Source: Alphaproteobacteria bacterium (lineage in GTDB: Bacteria; Pseudomonadota; Alphaproteobacteria; GCA-2731375). Taken from it: DNA of 64,000 nt. Below the pieces are notes generated by a model. The model made no database searches, was not told the origin of the DNA, and worked only from the letters and a program-made list of their open reading frames with translations. Below are positions 57,289 through 64,000 of this stretch, one piece after another. The stretch spans positions 5,888,001-5,952,000 of the forward strand of contig CBDDPY010000002.1 of the NCBI GenBank assembly GCA_965232515.1, read 5' to 3'. How positions within the stretch are numbered: the first letter of the stretch is position 1; each line of letters begins with the position of its first letter. The translations under genes and the position numbers were made by a program.

Positions 57289-58053
57289 ATGGCGATGGCG
57301 CAGCAGCAGGGATTTCGGCTCGACGGCAAGACAGCGGTGGTGACCGGCGCGGGGCGGGGCATCGGGCGCGCCTGTGCGCTGGCGCTGGCGGCGGCCGGCG
57401 CCGAGGTGGTGGCGATGAGCCGGACGGAAAGCGAGCTCGCGACACTGACGGACGAGGCGGCGGAGAGCGGCGGCGTCTGCCGGGCGGAGGTCTGCGACGT
57501 CACCGACATCGACGTGGTCACGGCCGTGTTCGGCGCCCTGCCGCGCCTCGACGTGCTGGTGAACAATGCCGGCAGCAATCAGCCGCAGCCGTTTCTCGAG
57601 GTTGAGACGGATGTGCTCGACCGGTTGCTGGACCTCAATCTCAGGGCCGCGTTCCTGGTGGCGCAGGTGGCGGCGCGGGTGATGGTGCGCCAGGACGAGG
57701 GCGGCGTCATCGTCAACATGTCCTCGCAGATGGGCCATGTGGGCGGACCGACGCGCAGCGTCTATTGCGCCACCAAGCACGCGCTGGAAGGCATGACCAA
57801 GGCGGCGGCGATCGAGCTGGCGCCGCTCGGCGTGCGCATGGTGACGGTCGGGCCGACCTTCGTCGAGACGCCGCTGGCGCAACGCTTTCTGGCTGATCCC
57901 GATTTCAAGATCGACGTGCTCGACCGCATTCCGATGGGCCGTATCGGCCGGGCCGAAGAGGTGGCGAACGCCGTCCTGTTCCTGGCCTCGCCCGCCGCCA
58001 GCCTGATCACCGGCACGCATCTGCTGGTCGACGGCGGCTGGACGGCGCGCTAA
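57289..58053 (+). CDS. Short-chain dehydrogenase/reductase
   Basis: [20 protein letters not shown] and YCATK motifs. Confidence 0.88.
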
Positions 58054-58076
58054 CCGCGAAAATAGGGCCTGTCCTA

Positions 58077-58661
58077 TTAATCGGTGTGGTGGTCGCTCGG
58101 CGGCAGGCGGTAGCGGTTGAAATGGAAGCTGGCAGAGTCGGCGGCGAGGCGGTCGACCAACTCGCCGAAATGGATGTCGTAGTGGACCGTGTGGAAGCGT
58201 TGCATCACGGCGAGCATGGCGATCTCGTCGTCGCCGTGACGCAGCGGCAGGTTCAGGCGCTCGACCAGCAGGTGGTCGCGGTCGGGGTGCAGATAGTTGG
58301 TGAAGGAGTAGATGGGCTGGCGCGCCCGAATGGTGTCGCGGAACAGGCTCAGGATTGCTTCGAGATAAATGCCCGACGTCATTTCCGAGATCTTCTGGCC
58401 GGTTCGATCCCGACCGTAATGCGCGACGATCTGGGTGCCGATCAGCCGGGCGCGGAAGTCGGCGCCGCCATCGATCACGTCCAACAGAAAGACATGCGGC
58501 ACGAGGTCGGGGATCTCGATCAGCGGATCGAGATCGGCGCGATCCGGCACGACGTCATGCAGCGCCCATTTCGACCACCAGTAGTCGGCGAAGGCCTGGA
58601 TCAGCCGATCGACCCGCGCCGAGGCCGGCAGCGCCATCAGGTCGAACGGCGGCTCTTTCAT
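58077..58661 (-). CDS. PAS-domain (PAS_5-like) protein
   Basis: [16 protein letters not shown] and ERLNLPL motifs. Confidence 0.75.
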
Positions 58662-58896
58662 TCGGCTATCCCTCGTTGCCGAAGACCCCCAACACGAACC
58701 GATGACGGACAACCTGCCCCCAAGCAGTGACGCCTAGACTATCACGAATTCGCCCGCGCGCCCGCGCCTGCGAACGATTTCGTGACGTAATTCACATCTT
58801 TCGGGTCGACCTGAGACCAAAATCGCCACCGCATCGACGCCGCCGCGCCGGTGTAGAGTGGGACATTCCGAAACCGGGGGTCGTGAGGAGGGCAGC

Positions 58897-59985
58897 ATGG
58901 CCAAAGCGAAACGAAAGAGTACGAAGAGGACGTCGAACTACGATCCCATCCAGGACGGCATCTGCCGGGTGCCGGAAGCGGCGGCGCGCACGTTCGGTCC
59001 GGAGATCGATCCGGTCCGGGCCGCGGCAATTTTGAGCACCGACAAGAAGTGGGTGAACGGCACCAAGATTCATTACTACCTTTACAAGTCCGGGCCCTGG
59101 AGGGGCGCCAACGACCAGTACGCCGCCGTGCGCCGTGCGTTCAAGGCCTGGAAGGATATCGGCATCGGCCTGGAGTTCGCCGAGGTCAGCACGCCCGAAG
59201 AGTCGGAGGTGCGCATCGGCTTCCTGCGCGGCGACGGCTCGTGGTCTTACGTGGGCCGCGACGTGCTGCAACGGCCGTTGAACGAGCGGACGATGAATTT
59301 CGGCTGGAACGTCGCCAGCACGAGCGGCTTCGACACCGCGTTGCACGAGATCGGTCATACGCTCGGCCGGCCGCACGAGCACCAGAATCCGAACGCCGGC
59401 ATCGACTGGGACGAGGAGGCGGTCTACGCGGCGCTGGCGAAGCCGCCGAACCGCTGGTCGCGGCAACAGACCTTCCACAACATTATTCGAAAGATCGATC
59501 CGGACAGCGTGCAGGGCTCGGCCTGGGATCCGAAGTCGATCATGCACTATCCGTTCGAGGCCGCGCTGATCGACGGGCCGGCCCCCTACAGCAACACCGG
59601 CATCTTCCCGCCGGGCGGCCTGTCGCCGGTCGACAAGAAATGGATGAAGGTCTTCTACCCGCCGCTGAAGCCGGCCGACCATCCGGAGCTGAAGCCGTTC
59701 CGCTCGGCCATGCTGTCGCTGGCGCCGGGCGCGCAGGCGAACTTCCTGATCAAGCCGACCTACACGCGGCGCTACGACTTCCGCACCTTCGGCGCGTCGG
59801 ACACCGTGATGGTGCTGTTCGAACGCGCGAGCGGCGAGCTGCGTTACCGCACGGCCGACGACGACAGCGGCCAGGACCGCAACGCCAGCTTCAGCTACCG
59901 GCTGACCCGCGGCCGCGAATACGTGCTGCGCATCCGGCTCTATTACAGCTGGTCGTCGGGCGAGACCGCGGTGATGTACTGGTAG
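58897..59985 (+). CDS. M12 (astacin-like) zinc metalloprotease with C-terminal beta domain
   Basis: HEIGHTLGRPHEH zinc motif and SIMHY Met-turn; no signal peptide; GAGGAG RBS. Confidence 0.88.
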   Translation: MAKAKRKSTKRTSNYDPIQDGICRVPEAAARTFGPEIDPVRAAAILSTDKKWVNGTKIHYYLYKSGPWRGANDQYAAVRRAFKAWKDIGIGLEFAEVSTPEESEVRIGFLRGDGSWSYVGRDVLQRPLNERTMNFGWNVASTSGFDTALHEIGHTLGRPHEHQNPNAGIDWDEEAVYAALAKPPNRWSRQQTFHNIIRKIDPDSVQGSAWDPKSIMHYPFEAALIDGPAPYSNTGIFPPGGLSPVDKKWMKVFYPPLKPADHPELKPFRSAMLSLAPGAQANFLIKPTYTRRYDFRTFGASDTVMVLFERASGELRYRTADDDSGQDRNASFSYRLTRGREYVLRIRLYYSWSSGETAVMYW

Positions 59986-59992
59986 GCGGGAT

Positions 59993-60043
59993 TTTGCGCT
60001 CACGGCAGCGGACCCTTTCGGGTCCCCGCCTGCGCGGGCGCGC
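59993..60043. repeat. 51-bp hairpin repeat, copy 1
   Basis: tttgcgctcacggcagcggaccctttcgggtccccgcctgcgcgggcgcgc; near-identical copy at 63487. Confidence 0.85.
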
Positions 60044-60504
60044 TAACGGCGGCGGAACAGGACGGCGTGGACCTCGGCGTCGGTCCAACGACGTTCCTCC
60101 GGCGTCAGGTGCTGGCCAACGCCGTCGGCGATGCTCCCGGCGTCGGGATGTCCGTTGGCGATCGCCATCCGGCACCAGAAATAGGCCCGCCGATGTCTGG
60201 GCCGCACGCCCTGACCGGTGAGGTAGCAGCGCGCGAGCCAATATTGCGCGCGGGCGTCGTCCTGTTCGGCGGCCATGCGGAACCAGTGCATGGCATGGGC
60301 CGGGTCTTGCGGCAGGCCGTCGCCCATGAGATAGCGCAGACCCAGCACCAGCTGCGCCGCTGCATGGCCCTCGCCGGCAGCGAAAATCAGCCGCGCGACG
60401 CTTGTCTCGGTCTCGGTCCCTTCCTCGGTCTCGGCGCGCAGGATGGTCGCGCCCAGATCGATTGGCGCGGCGGGAGCCGGTTCTTTCATGACAGCCTGCA
60501 ACAT
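60043..60504 (-). CDS. Sel1-repeat protein, paralog 1
   Basis: AQLVLGLRYLMGDG...WFRMAAEQ...AQYWLARCYLTGQG. Confidence 0.85.
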   Translation of the reverse strand: MLQAVMKEPAPAAPIDLGATILRAETEEGTETETSVARLIFAAGEGHAAAQLVLGLRYLMGDGLPQDPAHAMHWFRMAAEQDDARAQYWLARCYLTGQGVRPRHRRAYFWCRMAIANGHPDAGSIADGVGQHLTPEERRWTDAEVHAVLFRRR

Positions 60505-60536
60505 CCTTCGTCCCTCATGCCGGTGTCCGGCAGGCC

Positions 60537-60640
60537 AAAAAAGGGTGCCGCCAAATCAGGTCCGGCGGCGCCATTGGCACTTTTCCCCGACGCCTCAGCC
60601 GGGAGAGAAGAAGGTGGGTCTGCGGCGGCGGCGAATGTTT
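60537..60640 (-). ncRNA. Putative two-hairpin structured RNA, copy 1 (most diverged)
   Basis: Hairpin with pyrimidine-rich loop, then GGCGCCGCC/GGCGGCACC hairpin plus U6; boundaries approximate. Confidence 0.45.
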
Positions 60641-60751
60641 TTCTTTGAAAACTAGCGAATCTGTGCGCCGCCGTCGTTGCATGAGCGTCTCAACTTTGTT
60701 GTGCGGATGTCTCAGCCGGTGACGCAGCGGGGGCCACGATGCGGCGGAGAC

Positions 60752-61028
60752 ATGCCATCTACCGGCGCCGGCCGCGCAGGCGAACTTCCTGATCAAGCCG
60801 ACCTACACGCGGCGCTGCGATTTCCGCACCTTCGGCGGGTCGGACACCGTGATGGTGTTGTTCGAATGCAGCGACGGCGACCTGCGCTGCCGCATGGCCG
60901 ATGACGACAGCGGCCAGGACCGCAACGCCAGCTTCAGCTACCGGCTGACGCGCGGCCGCGAATACGTGCTGCGCATCCGGCTGTATTACAGCTGGTCGTC
61001 GGGCGAGACCGCGGTGATGTACTGGTAA
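60752..61028 (+). pseudogene. Duplicated 3' fragment of the M12 protease gene
   Basis: Near-identical to 59710-59985 (ANFLIKPTYTRR...GETAVMYW*); no 5' part. Confidence 0.88.
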
Positions 61029-61043
61029 GCGCCTGCCTTCTTG

Positions 61044-61478
61044 TCAGTGGCAGTGGCGGGGGACAGCGTGGAGTTCGGCCTCGGCCGAGCGGCGCGCCTT
61101 CCGCGCCAGATGCTGGCCGAGGCTGTCGGCGATGCCGTTGGTATCGGGATGACCATTGGCCATCGCGATCCGGCACCAGAAGTAAGCGCGAAAGTGGTCG
61201 GGCTGTAGGCCGAGCCCGTTGAGGTAACAGTGGGCGAGCAGATACTGCGCGCGCACGTCATCCCGTTCGGCGGCCAAGCGAATCCACTGCACGGTGCGTC
61301 GCCGGTCCTCCGGCACGCCGTTGCCCGTGAGATAGAGCAGATCCAATGTGAGCGGTGTCGCGGCATGGCCGCCACCGGCCGCGGTCTCGGCCCTGTTTTG
61401 GGACTCAGCGCGAAACAAGGTCGCATCGAGATCGGCAGACCTGGCGGTTACCGGTTGTTTCAGGGCGGTTTGCGACAT
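61044..61478 (-). CDS. Sel1-repeat protein, paralog 2 (degenerate first repeat)
   Basis: LLYLTGNG...WIRLAAER...AQYLLAHCYLNGLG...AYFWCRIA. Confidence 0.8.
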   Translation of the reverse strand: MSQTALKQPVTARSADLDATLFRAESQNRAETAAGGGHAATPLTLDLLYLTGNGVPEDRRRTVQWIRLAAERDDVRAQYLLAHCYLNGLGLQPDHFRAYFWCRIAMANGHPDTNGIADSLGQHLARKARRSAEAELHAVPRHCH

Positions 61479-61506
61479 GGTTCGGCCAATTCCTACGACA
61501 TCCGAC

Positions 61507-61612
61507 AAAGAGGAGGTGCCGCCGAGACATTGCTCGACGGCGCCAGTGGAAAACCTGGCGCCCCCGCCGCGAGGGAGAGGTCAGCCGGGGCGCCAGGCGG
61601 AATGACGAATAT
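61507..61612 (-). ncRNA. Putative two-hairpin structured RNA, copy 2
   Basis: CCUGGCGCCCC stem with ACCUCUCCCUC loop, then GGCGCCGUCGAG/CUCGGCGGCACC hairpin plus pyrimidine tail. Confidence 0.5.
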
Positions 61613-61695
61613 CTAGTGGGACGAGCGGTCCTGGCGTTCGGACGAAATCTTGAATTTCTCGGACGGTGATCTTCGCGCGCCGGCGGCTCGACCGG

Positions 61696-62157
61696 CTACC
61701 TTCGGCGGAAGCGGACGGTGCGGACCTCGGCGTCGGTCCAGCGGCGTTCATCCGGCGTTAGATGCTGGCCGGCGCCGTCGCGAATGCAGCCGGGATCGGC
61801 ATGGCCGTTTGCGATCGCCGTTTGGCACCAGAAATAGGCCCGGCGGTAGCTGTGCCGTACGCCCTGGCCGGCGAGGTAACAGCGGGCGAGCCAGTACTGT
61901 GCGCGGGCGTTGTCCTGTTCGGCGGCGATGCTGAACCAGTGCACGGCGCGGATCTCGTCCTTCGCCACGCCGTCGCCGTCGAGATAGCGCAAGCCCAGCA
62001 CGAGCTGGGCAGCCGCTTGACCTTCGCCGGCCGCGAAGGTCAACAACGTGACGGCCGTTTCGGTTTCGACACCGGCGTCAGTCTCGGCGCGAAACATCGT
62101 CGCATCGAGATCGGGCGGCATGACGGATGCCGGTCGTTTCATCGCTGTTCGCAACAC
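61696..62157 (-). CDS. Sel1-repeat protein, paralog 3
   Basis: AQLVLGLRYLDGDG...WFSIAAEQ...AQYWLARCY; GTG start inferred by alignment to paralogs. Confidence 0.85.
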   Translation of the reverse strand: MLRTAMKRPASVMPPDLDATMFRAETDAGVETETAVTLLTFAAGEGQAAAQLVLGLRYLDGDGVAKDEIRAVHWFSIAAEQDNARAQYWLARCYLAGQGVRHSYRRAYFWCQTAIANGHADPGCIRDGAGQHLTPDERRWTDAEVRTVRFRRR

Positions 62158-62185
62158 TGTTCGCCCCTTTGCGCCGGCATCCGGC

Positions 62186-62292
62186 AAAAAAATTGGTGCC
62201 GCCGACACGACGGTCGACGGCGCCAGTTGGGGGTACGACGCTCCGGCTGGGAGGGAGGATTCAGCCGAAGCGTCAGGCGGGAGTGAGGAATA
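62186..62292 (-). ncRNA. Putative two-hairpin structured RNA, copy 3
   Basis: 13-bp stem with AAUCCUCCCUCC loop, then 13-bp stem plus U7. Confidence 0.55.
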
Positions 62293-62489
62293 CGTAGTGC
62301 GATAAGCGGTCTTGGTATTCGGACGAAAATCTTATGTTTGTCGGGCAATGGATTTTGAGCGTGGCGGCGGCTCGCTCGGCCGGCGCGGATTTCTTACCGC
62401 CATCACGGAGTGCGTCGCGCATATGCGCCCAATCCACCAGGAGCGGGCCGCGGCGCCGCGCAGACCATGATCGTGGTGAGAATTCCGGG

Positions 62490-62945
62490 CTAGCGGCGTC
62501 GCGCGAGGACGGCGCGGACCTCGGCCTCGGTCCAGCGCCGCTCTTCCGGCGTCAGGTGCTGGCCGGCGCCGGCGGCGATGCTGCCGCTGTCGGCCTGGCC
62601 GTTGGCGCAGGCGAGCCGGCACCAGAAGTAGGCGCGTTTGTGGCTCTGCCGCACGCCCTCGCCGGTCAGGTGGCAGCGGGCGATCCAGTACTGTGCGCGC
62701 GGCTCGTTCTGCTCGGCGGCCTTGCGGAACCAGTGCACGGCCTGGCCCGGGTCCTTGGTCAGACCGTCGCCCGCGAGATAGCGCAGGCCCAGCACGAGCT
62801 GGGCCGCCGGGTCGCCGTCGCCGGCCGCGAAGATCAGCCGCGCCACGCTCGTGTCGGATCCGTCGCCGCTCTCGGTGCACATGGCCGCCGCGTCGAGGCT
62901 GCTTGTCGCGCTCGGAAACGCCAGTTTCAGGGCCGCGTTTGGCAT
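62490..62945 (-). CDS. Sel1-repeat protein, paralog 4
   Basis: AQLVLGLRYLAGDG...WFRKAAEQ...AQYWIARCH; start MPNAALK. Confidence 0.85.
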   Translation of the reverse strand: MPNAALKLAFPSATSSLDAAAMCTESGDGSDTSVARLIFAAGDGDPAAQLVLGLRYLAGDGLTKDPGQAVHWFRKAAEQNEPRAQYWIARCHLTGEGVRQSHKRAYFWCRLACANGQADSGSIAAGAGQHLTPEERRWTEAEVRAVLARRR

Positions 62946-63134
62946 CGGAGGGTCCTTTCGCCGCATGCTCTGGGCGACAGATGGCGCTTGGTTCCCGGCA
63001 TCGAAATTGCCGAAACGCGCATAGGGGTCGAAAAGAAATGCATAGGTCGTCGGCCGATTGGCGGCGCGCCCACGGCATGCGACCATGGCCGGGATCGGAA
63101 AAATCCTTTGTTTTCGCGCAACCGGGAGGGAACC

Positions 63135-63452
63135 GTGGCGATCTACGAGCTCAGGACCTATGACATCTATGTCGGCAAGATTGGCGAGGCGGTGGCGCTT
63201 TATCGCGACGAGGGCTGGCCGGCGCTGGAGAAACACAGCGACAAGCTGGTCGGCTATTTCACCGGCGATATCGGCGCCATGAACCAGATCGTGCATCTCT
63301 GGAAGTTCGAGGACGACGCCGACCGGCGGGCGCACTGGGCTCGTGTCTTCGGCGACGACGAATTCATGGCCTTCGCCGGCAAGCTCAGGCCACTGGTGCA
63401 GAAGCAGCAGAACAAATTGCTGATGAACGCGCCGTTCGGACCCAGGCCTTAG
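63135..63452 (+). CDS. NIPSNAP-family protein
   Basis: IYELRTY and NQIVHLW motifs; GGGAGG RBS before GTG. Confidence 0.88.
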   Translation: MAIYELRTYDIYVGKIGEAVALYRDEGWPALEKHSDKLVGYFTGDIGAMNQIVHLWKFEDDADRRAHWARVFGDDEFMAFAGKLRPLVQKQQNKLLMNAPFGPRP

Positions 63453-63484
63453 AACGCTTCCCAAAGACGGGAAGCGTTCTAAGG
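63447..63484. repeat. Perfect 16-bp inverted repeat
   Basis: ccttagaacgcttccc-aaagac-gggaagcgttctaagg; contains NIPSNAP stop. Confidence 0.75.
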
Positions 63485-63486
63485 GC

Positions 63487-63537
63487 TTTGCGCTCACGGC
63501 AGCGGACCCTTTCGGGTCCGCGCCTGCGCGGGCGCGC
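63487..63537. repeat. 51-bp hairpin repeat, copy 2
   Basis: 1 mismatch versus 59993-60043. Confidence 0.85.
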
Positions 63538-63660
63538 CGGATAAGCCGGCGGGCCGCAGTCGCGGCCTGGAACGGCTCCCGTCAATCTGAAGTGCCTCGA
63601 ATTCCCGGTACCTCCGGTGTTTGCTATGCTCCGCGCCAGCAGGGAACAGGGAGCGCCGGC

Positions 63661-64000
63661 ATGAGTACGCAGACCATTCGCATGGATGACGAGTTGGAGA
63701 CCTATCTGTGGTCGGCCTCGGGGCGCGAGCCGCCGGTGCTGGCGGAACTGCGCGAGGAAACGCAGGCGAATCCGCGGCGCGGCATGCAGGTCTCGCCCAT
63801 GCAGGGCCAGTTCATGGGCGTACTGGTGAAGGCGGTGGGCGCGCGCAAGATCCTCGAGGTCGGGGTCTTTACCGGCTATTCGTCGCTGTCGATGGTGCTG
63901 GCGCTGCCCGACGACGGCCGGCTGATCGCGCTCGACATCTCCGAGGACTACACGGCGCTGGCGCGGAAATACTGGGATAAGGCCGGCGTCGCCCACAAGG
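63661..64000 (+). CDS. Class I SAM-dependent O-methyltransferase (CCoAOMT-like), 3' truncated by window
   Basis: Translated by hand: MSTQTIRMD...ARKILEVGVFTGYS...LPDDGRLIALD. Confidence 0.88.
   Translation, partial: MSTQTIRMDDELETYLWSASGREPPVLAELREETQANPRRGMQVSPMQGQFMGVLVKAVGARKILEVGVFTGYSSLSMVLALPDDGRLIALDISEDYTALARKYWDKAGVAHK

Follow-up and report, generated by a model that had tools for sequence, protein, structure and literature searches.

A putative anti-Shine-Dalgarno-loop RNA module with terminator-type hairpins between the tandem Sel1-repeat genes of an alphaproteobacterium

Small RNAs (sRNAs) derived from attenuators or riboswitches, such as rnTrpL of Sinorhizobium and SreA of Listeria, end at an intrinsic terminator just before a start codon, and intercistronic hairpins set differential expression within operons, as in the puf operon of Rhodobacter. 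The cuckoo/CcsR RNAs, as described in PMC4615179, consist of two to four hairpins side by side, every one of them with CCUCCUCCC in its loop. According to PMC8034643, CcsR RNAs come from the 3' untranslated region (UTR), in Rhodobacter, or apparently from the 5' UTR, in Sinorhizobium, of a gene for a small DUF1127 protein; at the CIN1 locus this protein, CcaF1, binds the CcsR RNAs co-transcribed with its gene and helps their maturation. Here we describe three paralogous RNA modules in a 64,000-nt stretch of DNA (the window) from an alphaproteobacterium of the GCA-2731375 lineage (assembly GCA_965232515.1, contig CBDDPY010000002.1, forward-strand positions 5,888,001 to 5,952,000). They lie in an array of four tandem small Sel1-repeat genes on the minus strand, at the right end of the window. 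Their structures are kept across old paralogs, terminator features are present in two of the three copies, the position is intercistronic, and the element is unique to this place in the genome. We tentatively read each module as giving a terminated short RNA with an exposed anti-Shine-Dalgarno (anti-SD) loop, the downstream Sel1 gene being expressed by read-through, and on modeled structures rate this at slightly below an even call. The modules resemble cuckoo/CcsR RNAs in logic but do not belong with them, failing every defining feature tested.

All module coordinates refer to the minus strand, and units 1, 2, and 3 precede the genes Sel1B, Sel1C, and Sel1D. Unit 1 lies between the Sel1A stop and the Sel1B start (62158..62489), with hairpins A1 and B1 and a U-tract at 62186-62192; unit 2 lies between the Sel1B stop and the Sel1C start (61479..61695), with hairpins A2 and B2 and a weak tract, UCCUCUUUGU, at 61505-61514; unit 3 lies between a Sel1-stop remnant and the Sel1D start (60505..60758), with hairpins A3 and B3 and a U-tract at 60537-60542. 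Hairpin A is GC-rich in all three units and carries a C/U-rich loop of 12 to 16 nt. A1 (62236-62275) has a 14-bp stem and the loop AAUCCUCCCUCC at 62250-62261, A2 (61553-61598) has 16 bp and the loop ACCUCUCCCUCG at 61570-61581, and A3 (60583-60635) has an interrupted stem and the 16-nt loop CCACCUUCUUCUCUCC at 60601-60616. After a linker of about 10 nt comes hairpin B, with the consensus UGGCGCCGYCG-loop-YGGCGGCACC and a C-A mismatch kept in all three copies; B1 (62194-62225, loop CCGUCGU) is followed by U7, B2 (61515-61544, loop GCAAUGU) by UCCUCUUUGU, and B3 (60547-60569, loop CCUGA) by U6. The initial annotation had placed a hairpin with a pyrimidine loop, then a second hairpin with a U/pyrimidine tract, before three Sel1 paralogs, and its coordinates and loops were correct. 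The fold energies are -46.9 kcal/mol for unit 1 and -55.4 kcal/mol for unit 2; for 116-nt windows compared with dinucleotide shuffles, the folding z-scores are -6.4, -4.6, and -1.6 for units 1, 2, and 3.

A terminator scan called unit 1 (62221..62198) and unit 3 (60569..60547), each with nine pairs followed by U7 or U6, so that a GC-rich stem running directly into a U run, the criterion for an intrinsic (Rho-independent) terminator, is found in two of three copies. The tracts end 28, 26, and 32 nt before the start codons (GTG at 62157, ATG at 61478, and ATG at 60504); the annotated spacing of about 30 nt thus stands, as do the annotated terminators of units 1 and 3, whereas that of unit 2 was not recovered by the scan. 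A gap of only 26 to 32 nt is too short to hold a promoter downstream of the terminator. The terminator position would suit the leader of the downstream Sel1 gene, 26 to 32 nt before its start, with no sigma-70-type promoter matches in 59900-63200. Sel1B and Sel1D are 70% identical in protein and only 58% at four-fold degenerate sites, which points to purifying selection; genes so selected must be expressed, and transcripts must therefore cross the module by read-through.

The three full spacers are collinear in alignment, each running from the stop codon of one Sel1 gene up to where the following one starts (spacer 3 opens at CGGTAG, the remnant of a Sel1 stop), and so the module is intercistronic, always following one Sel1 gene and preceding another. 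The annotation had proposed that an RNA was duplicated as a unit with the Sel1 gene behind it. The paralogy and the joint duplication hold, but the collinear spacers are better described as a duplicated intercistronic region. An RNA followed by its Sel1 gene and a Sel1 gene followed by its 3'-UTR RNA are indistinguishable by anatomy, and a 3'-UTR-derived or read-through reading is equally good. Upstream of hairpin A, 61599-61647 and 62280-62328 are 80% identical over 49 nt, within shared blocks that extend to 61660 and 62340; the copy near 60.6 kb has no such block. Described earlier as promoter-like, the block holds up as a homology between two copies but not as a promoter, since it has no sigma-70-type match and is missing from one copy; it is part of the general spacer homology. 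A motif CTA(G/C)NT(A/T)TTC is common to units 1 and 2 only and occurs 33 times in the genome, and no consistent sigma-54 or extracytoplasmic function (ECF)-type motif was seen by eye.

The copies have drifted far apart. The RNA stretches are 57/96 to 70/102 identical (59 to 69%), and four-fold sites of the Sel1 paralogs are 58 to 74% identical, so the RNA is about as diverged as silent sites. Standard pairs nonetheless occupy 93.6% of 78 pair cells, compared with 36 to 64% when the 3' partners are slid by one to three columns. Four of 26 pairs have changed on both sides, and 9 of 500 shuffles scored as high in covariation. This retention of structure despite sequence drift is suggestive, and it bears out the earlier remark that the hairpin A stems differ and yet keep pairing. 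The stems of hairpin B are the best conserved part, with 9 to 11 of 12 positions identical per arm and 11/12 between units 1 and 2. A small open reading frame (ORF), sense or antisense, was considered and rejected: indels of 1, 3, 4, and 6 nt between copies leave no conserved reading frame on either strand.

In the reading that we prefer, the module would be an intercistronic RNA element of the tandem Sel1 array, composed of a very stable stem-loop, a C/U-rich loop resembling the 3' end of 16S rRNA, and an intrinsic terminator. Transcripts that enter from the Sel1 gene upstream, or that begin in the spacer itself, would mostly stop at hairpin B, leaving a stable RNA 3' end of about 90 to 100 nt that comprises hairpin A, the linker, hairpin B, and the U tail. 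This RNA could act as a UTR-derived sRNA whose loop pairs with Shine-Dalgarno regions in trans, and the downstream Sel1 paralog would be made only from the read-through fraction, so that the module would work as a throttle on it. Termination, accumulation of the short RNA, and pairing of the loop with ribosome-binding sites (RBSs) in trans are steps that we infer. For loop 1, perfect complementarity over 9 nt or more occurs at 102 places in the genome, and 53 of these precede the start of an ORF of at least 60 aa by no more than 18 nt; for loop 2 the corresponding numbers are 148 and 52. The three loops differ, and so the RNAs could have different target sets.

Several observations weigh against this reading. 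Complementarity to many RBSs would be expected of any C/U-rich loop. The loop of hairpin A, which would be the seed, is not conserved in sequence between copies (8/12 identical), and the combination of a variable loop with hairpin B stems as the most conserved part is unusual in a trans-acting seed as well as in a simple terminator. The structural support comes from three sequences, all of them paralogs; in the shuffle control of the covariation check that had been proposed for them, 25 of 500 shuffles attained the observed paired percentage. A promoter scan of 59900-63200 turned up no sigma-70-type site, and unit 2, which has the same stem and the poor tract UCCUCUUUGU, was left uncalled in the terminator scan. 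A public sequencing run labelled RNA-Seq (X4) covers most of 59900-63200 at a flat depth of about 4 to 8 and holds a 175,787-nt contig; it therefore probably carries DNA from the genome of a strain with about 98% identity and does not count as evidence of expression. A raw poly-A RNA run (X14) gave no reads at all and hence no test of expression. Finally, a contig from a diverged relative (run X5) speaks for both sides. It carries the 3' end of Sel1A, 57 nt, a stretch like the RNA of unit 3, and a Sel1D-like gene, so that one module stands between two Sel1 genes in that strain, an order in favor of the intercistronic reading. On the other side, the RNA stretch there has 28 differences and seven gaps over 166 nt, no better preservation than in the coding sequence around it.

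The strongest competing account is plain operon punctuation, in which hairpin B merely ends the transcript of the upstream Sel1 gene and hairpin A stabilizes its 3' end against exonucleases, with no loop pairing and no sRNA function. Every module does lie downstream of a Sel1 gene, and the lack of loop conservation is what such a role would allow. The genome also has a terminator hairpin with the loop ACCUCCUCCCA at another locus (L158, 734-811), so that C/U-rich terminator loops occur in it without Sel1 genes; a crude scan returned 59 hairpins with C/U-rich loops genome-wide, a count that is a poor measure since the scan recovered one of the three known copies. Punctuation does not account well for a terminator placed 26 to 32 nt before an intact, selected gene with no promoter between them, an arrangement that needs read-through in any case. 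Nor does termination require a C/U-rich loop of 12 to 16 nt or the C-A mismatch of hairpin B, both of which are kept in three old paralogs. We regard punctuation as possible but rather unlikely.

Another rival is a factor-dependent attenuator, in which a protein, possibly a Sel1 protein, or another RNA would bind hairpin A or the nearly invariant hairpin B and set the read-through into the next Sel1 gene. The terminator sits within what would have to be the leader of Sel1B, Sel1C, and Sel1D, and the stems of hairpin B are conserved beyond what a terminator needs (11/12 per arm between units 1 and 2, the C-A mismatch being common to the three copies). That a small protein can act on the RNA next to its gene has a precedent in CcaF1, which binds its co-transcribed CcsR RNAs, as set out in PMC8034643. 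Constrained and nascent-transcript folds, on the other hand, showed no conserved antiterminator pairing: with the 3' arm of hairpin B blocked, the folds lose 12 to 15 kcal/mol, hairpin A stays closed, and the partners found for the 5' arm of hairpin B are weak and differ from copy to copy. The Sel1 proteins are moreover near neutral (pI 6.4 to 8.6), and adjacency is the only link that emerged here between protein and RNA. Sel1 repeats are not known as RNA binders. An attenuator of this kind is, in our judgment, improbable.

Read-through transcripts would also bring the loop of hairpin A into the same molecule as the downstream Shine-Dalgarno region, which it might pair with and mask. For unit 3 the pairing is strong: loop 3 with the Sel1D RBS, GAGGGACGAAGG, gives -16.2 kcal/mol (11/12 positions by eye), and the full-length fold of unit 3 contains it. 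The loops of units 1 and 2 reach only -7.8 and -5.7 kcal/mol with the RBSs of their own downstream genes, values that 67% and 59% of shuffled RBSs equal or better, and even for unit 3 8% of shuffles are as good. Among the RBSs, only that of Sel1D pairs strongly with all three loops (-13.5 to -16.2 kcal/mol, compared with -4.0 to -8.5 kcal/mol for the other RBSs), and masking in cis is plausible only for Sel1D; as an account of the modules we think it highly unlikely. For a riboregulated leader, one of the possibilities raised in the initial annotation, no conserved antiterminator was found, and the cis pairing between loop and Shine-Dalgarno sequence is good for only one of three downstream genes.

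The array itself encodes four proteins of 144 to 153 aa with two Sel1 repeats each, all of which match Pfam PF08238 at 51.7 to 72.5 bits (cut-off, 30.7) and are thus Sel1 proteins. Sel1A (62945..62490, minus; 151 aa; E 2.6e-20) is the first gene and has no RNA module upstream; it is followed on the same strand by Sel1B (62157..61696; 153 aa, with the GTG start; E 3.2e-18), Sel1C (61478..61044; 144 aa; E 9.5e-14), and Sel1D (60504..60043; 153 aa; E 7.6e-19), the last with the RBS GAGGGACGAAGG. Protein identity among them is 44 to 70%, and a four-fold-site identity of only 58 to 74% indicates that the paralogs are old. Sel1C is the most diverged, at 44 to 54% identity to the other three. Its first repeat lacks nine residues in the alignment, its C terminus is different, and its Shine-Dalgarno sequence is weak; the module upstream of it is the only one with a poor U tract (61505-61514); Sel1C and its upstream unit may be decaying.

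A functional RNA-protein pair, also suggested earlier, would have the small cytoplasmic Sel1 protein bind hairpin B, with its C-A mismatch, or the C/U-rich loop, and thereby control termination, maturation, or stability of an anti-SD sRNA from its own operon. If true, it would account for the threefold joint duplication of RNA and gene, and the parallel would be CcaF1 and CcsR, where a protein acts on an RNA of its own operon; the Sel1 repeat fold is not known for RNA handling. The pI values of 6.4 to 8.6 give no hint of RNA binding, and our literature search found no link of Sel1 genes with such RNAs. The suggestion has thus gained no evidence from the analysis, and we consider such a pair very improbable.

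Downstream of the array, and convergent with it, is an astacin/matrixin-like metalloprotease gene (58897..59985, plus), with a PAS_5 gene beyond. A 268-nt copy of the protease 3' end (60764..61031, plus) is 93 to 94% identical to 59721-59988, with 90% protein identity to protease residues 276 to 362. The fragment is fused to the stop-codon remnant CGGTAG (stop at 60759-60761, minus), the two being joined by microhomology. The duplication is evidently recent, and the unit made of RNA3 and Sel1D looks to have been added to the locus through unequal or illegitimate recombination. A 51-nt hairpin element with the core GCGGACCC-GAAA-GGGTCCGC occurs at 59993-60043 and 63487-63537, in the same orientation and 98% identical. 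These two copies are the only ones in the genome; 3494 nt apart, they bracket a NIPSNAP-like gene and the whole Sel1 array. The element is missing from the equivalent spacer between Sel1C and the protease fragment, and therefore either arrived later than the duplication or has disappeared from this spacer.

In the 7.39-Mb genome the hairpin-B pattern is present at exactly three places, each of them in one of these modules, and is therefore not a generic repeat; a match to such a repeat would, by the initial annotation, have been fatal to its proposal. A covariance model (R1) built from the three copies scored 101.7, 110.1, and 79.9 bits on units 1, 2, and 3 and 24 bits at the next best place in a scan of the same genome, which scored 150 of about 2100 first-look candidates. 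Our collection holds 33 genomes of the order or family, this one included. R1 gave matches at E values up to 0.1 in 21 of the 33, all of them at most 30.3 bits outside the genome described here; eight alignments from the other genomes were inspected, were GC-rich without a C/U loop or U tract, and are read as chance. The hairpin-B pattern was present in none of the other 32. One genome of the same genus (G001, 81% complete) has, at locus L002, an ortholog of Sel1A alone, with the NIPSNAP-like gene and the PAS_5 gene as its immediate neighbors on either side; in that 81% neither the module nor Sel1B to Sel1D nor the protease was found. Sel1A is the only Sel1 copy with an ortholog there.

Wider searches gave the same picture. 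Among the genomes of 185,579 species, relatives of the Sel1 proteins were found at 28 loci, with a single one above 44% identity; at 63%, it is apparently a metagenome-assembled genome (MAG) of the same lineage as G001. In JGI metagenomes, none of the best 80 of 122 Sel1 relatives exceeded 51% identity. R1 at E values up to 0.01 found no match in 100 of 108 loci around other Sel1 genes (L050-L149 were covered, L150-L157 left out) and none at three protease loci; upstream of five other small Sel1 genes, from this genome and relatives, neither R1 nor minimum free energy (MFE) folds judged by eye revealed a comparable pair of hairpin and terminator. Sixteen viral contigs with the hairpin-B pattern are taken as chance, with R1 scores of at most 21.4 bits and, in the three alignments shown, no hairpin A and no U tract. 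Near-identical and somewhat diverged strains are present in public sequencing runs.

With so narrow a distribution, found in one genome of the 33, and a recent rearrangement at the locus in the form of the 268-nt protease fragment duplicated at 93 to 94%, the units might have no RNA function, being a DNA-level repeat or a leftover of duplication kept by gene conversion. The flanks and hairpin A have diverged to 59 to 69% identity, so conversion is not homogenizing the units, and their pairing is kept with double changes. The element is, besides, not repeated elsewhere in the genome. We give this explanation very little credence.

Separately, an intergenic segment elsewhere in the genome (C2:6312430-6312470; about 1935-1975 of L189), GGACCGCTC..CTAGATTTTCCGGATGCCG, looks like the upstream block that units 1 and 2 share, fused to the segment behind their terminators and lacking the hairpins; 4 kb from it is a run of 19 nt identical to unit 3. 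Both are probably coincidence and belong to unrelated intergenic and coding sequence.

No family in Rfam 15 corresponds to the modules, in keeping with the earlier description of them as undescribed. A cmscan of 58000-64000 at E values up to 10 returned seven weak, unrelated matches, none on the strand of the elements; the only one that overlaps the copies is a 17-bit match to a structure-less long noncoding RNA (lncRNA) model on the opposite strand. Scanning the whole window at gathering scores gave none. The Rfam model of the three-hairpin anti-SD RNAs, ar14 (RF02344; gathering score, 58.8 bits), did not match the three copies at E values up to 10, and nothing in the genome exceeded its cut-off. 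Below that cut-off, at 28.9 to 30.8 bits, it matched the terminator hairpin at L158 734-811 (C2:732433-732508, plus), whose loop is ACCUCCUCCCA and which, with U6 at its end, comes directly after the stop codon of a gene. By its modeled structure, that hairpin is a candidate 3'-UTR anti-SD RNA away from Sel1 genes.

If the short RNAs of the Sel1 array exist, they would be a new anti-SD-loop RNA with a single seed hairpin, set between paralogous protein genes and multiplied with them. They would offer a compact natural case for the origin and diversification of UTR-derived sRNAs, and one in which terminator read-through grades the expression of gene copies. Their reach is limited by a very narrow distribution: one species and near strains in sequencing runs, out of everything searched.

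Compared with the leaders of the rnTrpL/SreA type, the modules share a terminator 26 to 32 nt before a start codon, a downstream gene that needs read-through, and a terminated short RNA as a possible product; they differ in having no antiterminator fold, no leader peptide frame, and no ligand-binding fold matched in Rfam. Like hairpins of the puf type, they are stable structures between cistrons, for which the upstream product is expected to exceed the downstream one. Here, in contrast, the cistrons are paralogs, and a hairpin with a conserved C/U-rich loop is followed by a canonical terminator.

The likeness to single modules of the alphaproteobacterial anti-SD sRNAs, already noted in the first description, is upheld. 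As in the cuckoo/CcsR RNAs (RSs0680, ar14/SmelC397), so far as these are described in the two papers cited, GC-rich hairpins display a C/U-rich, anti-SD-like loop, the stems vary while the character of the loop is kept, and the copies have multiplied in tandem. Both end in a terminator-like hairpin, and as the published RNAs lie in the UTR of a gene for a small protein and are co-transcribed with it, so the modules here would be. The differences are equally clear. Cuckoo/CcsR RNAs are described with two to four hairpins carrying a C/U loop, compared with one of two hairpins per module here, and with the motif CCUCCUCCC, which is in none of the loops here (CCUCCCUCC, CCUCUCCCUC, and CCUUCUUCUCUCC). 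The modules of the present locus are separated by a whole gene, and the neighboring protein, DUF1127 in the published case, is a Sel1-repeat (PF08238) protein, with no DUF1127 among the seven proteins scanned. Set beside these systems, the modules appear to be an anti-SD-loop RNA of narrow, lineage-specific distribution that lies in the UTR of a gene for a small protein, and their structure has probably been selected for.

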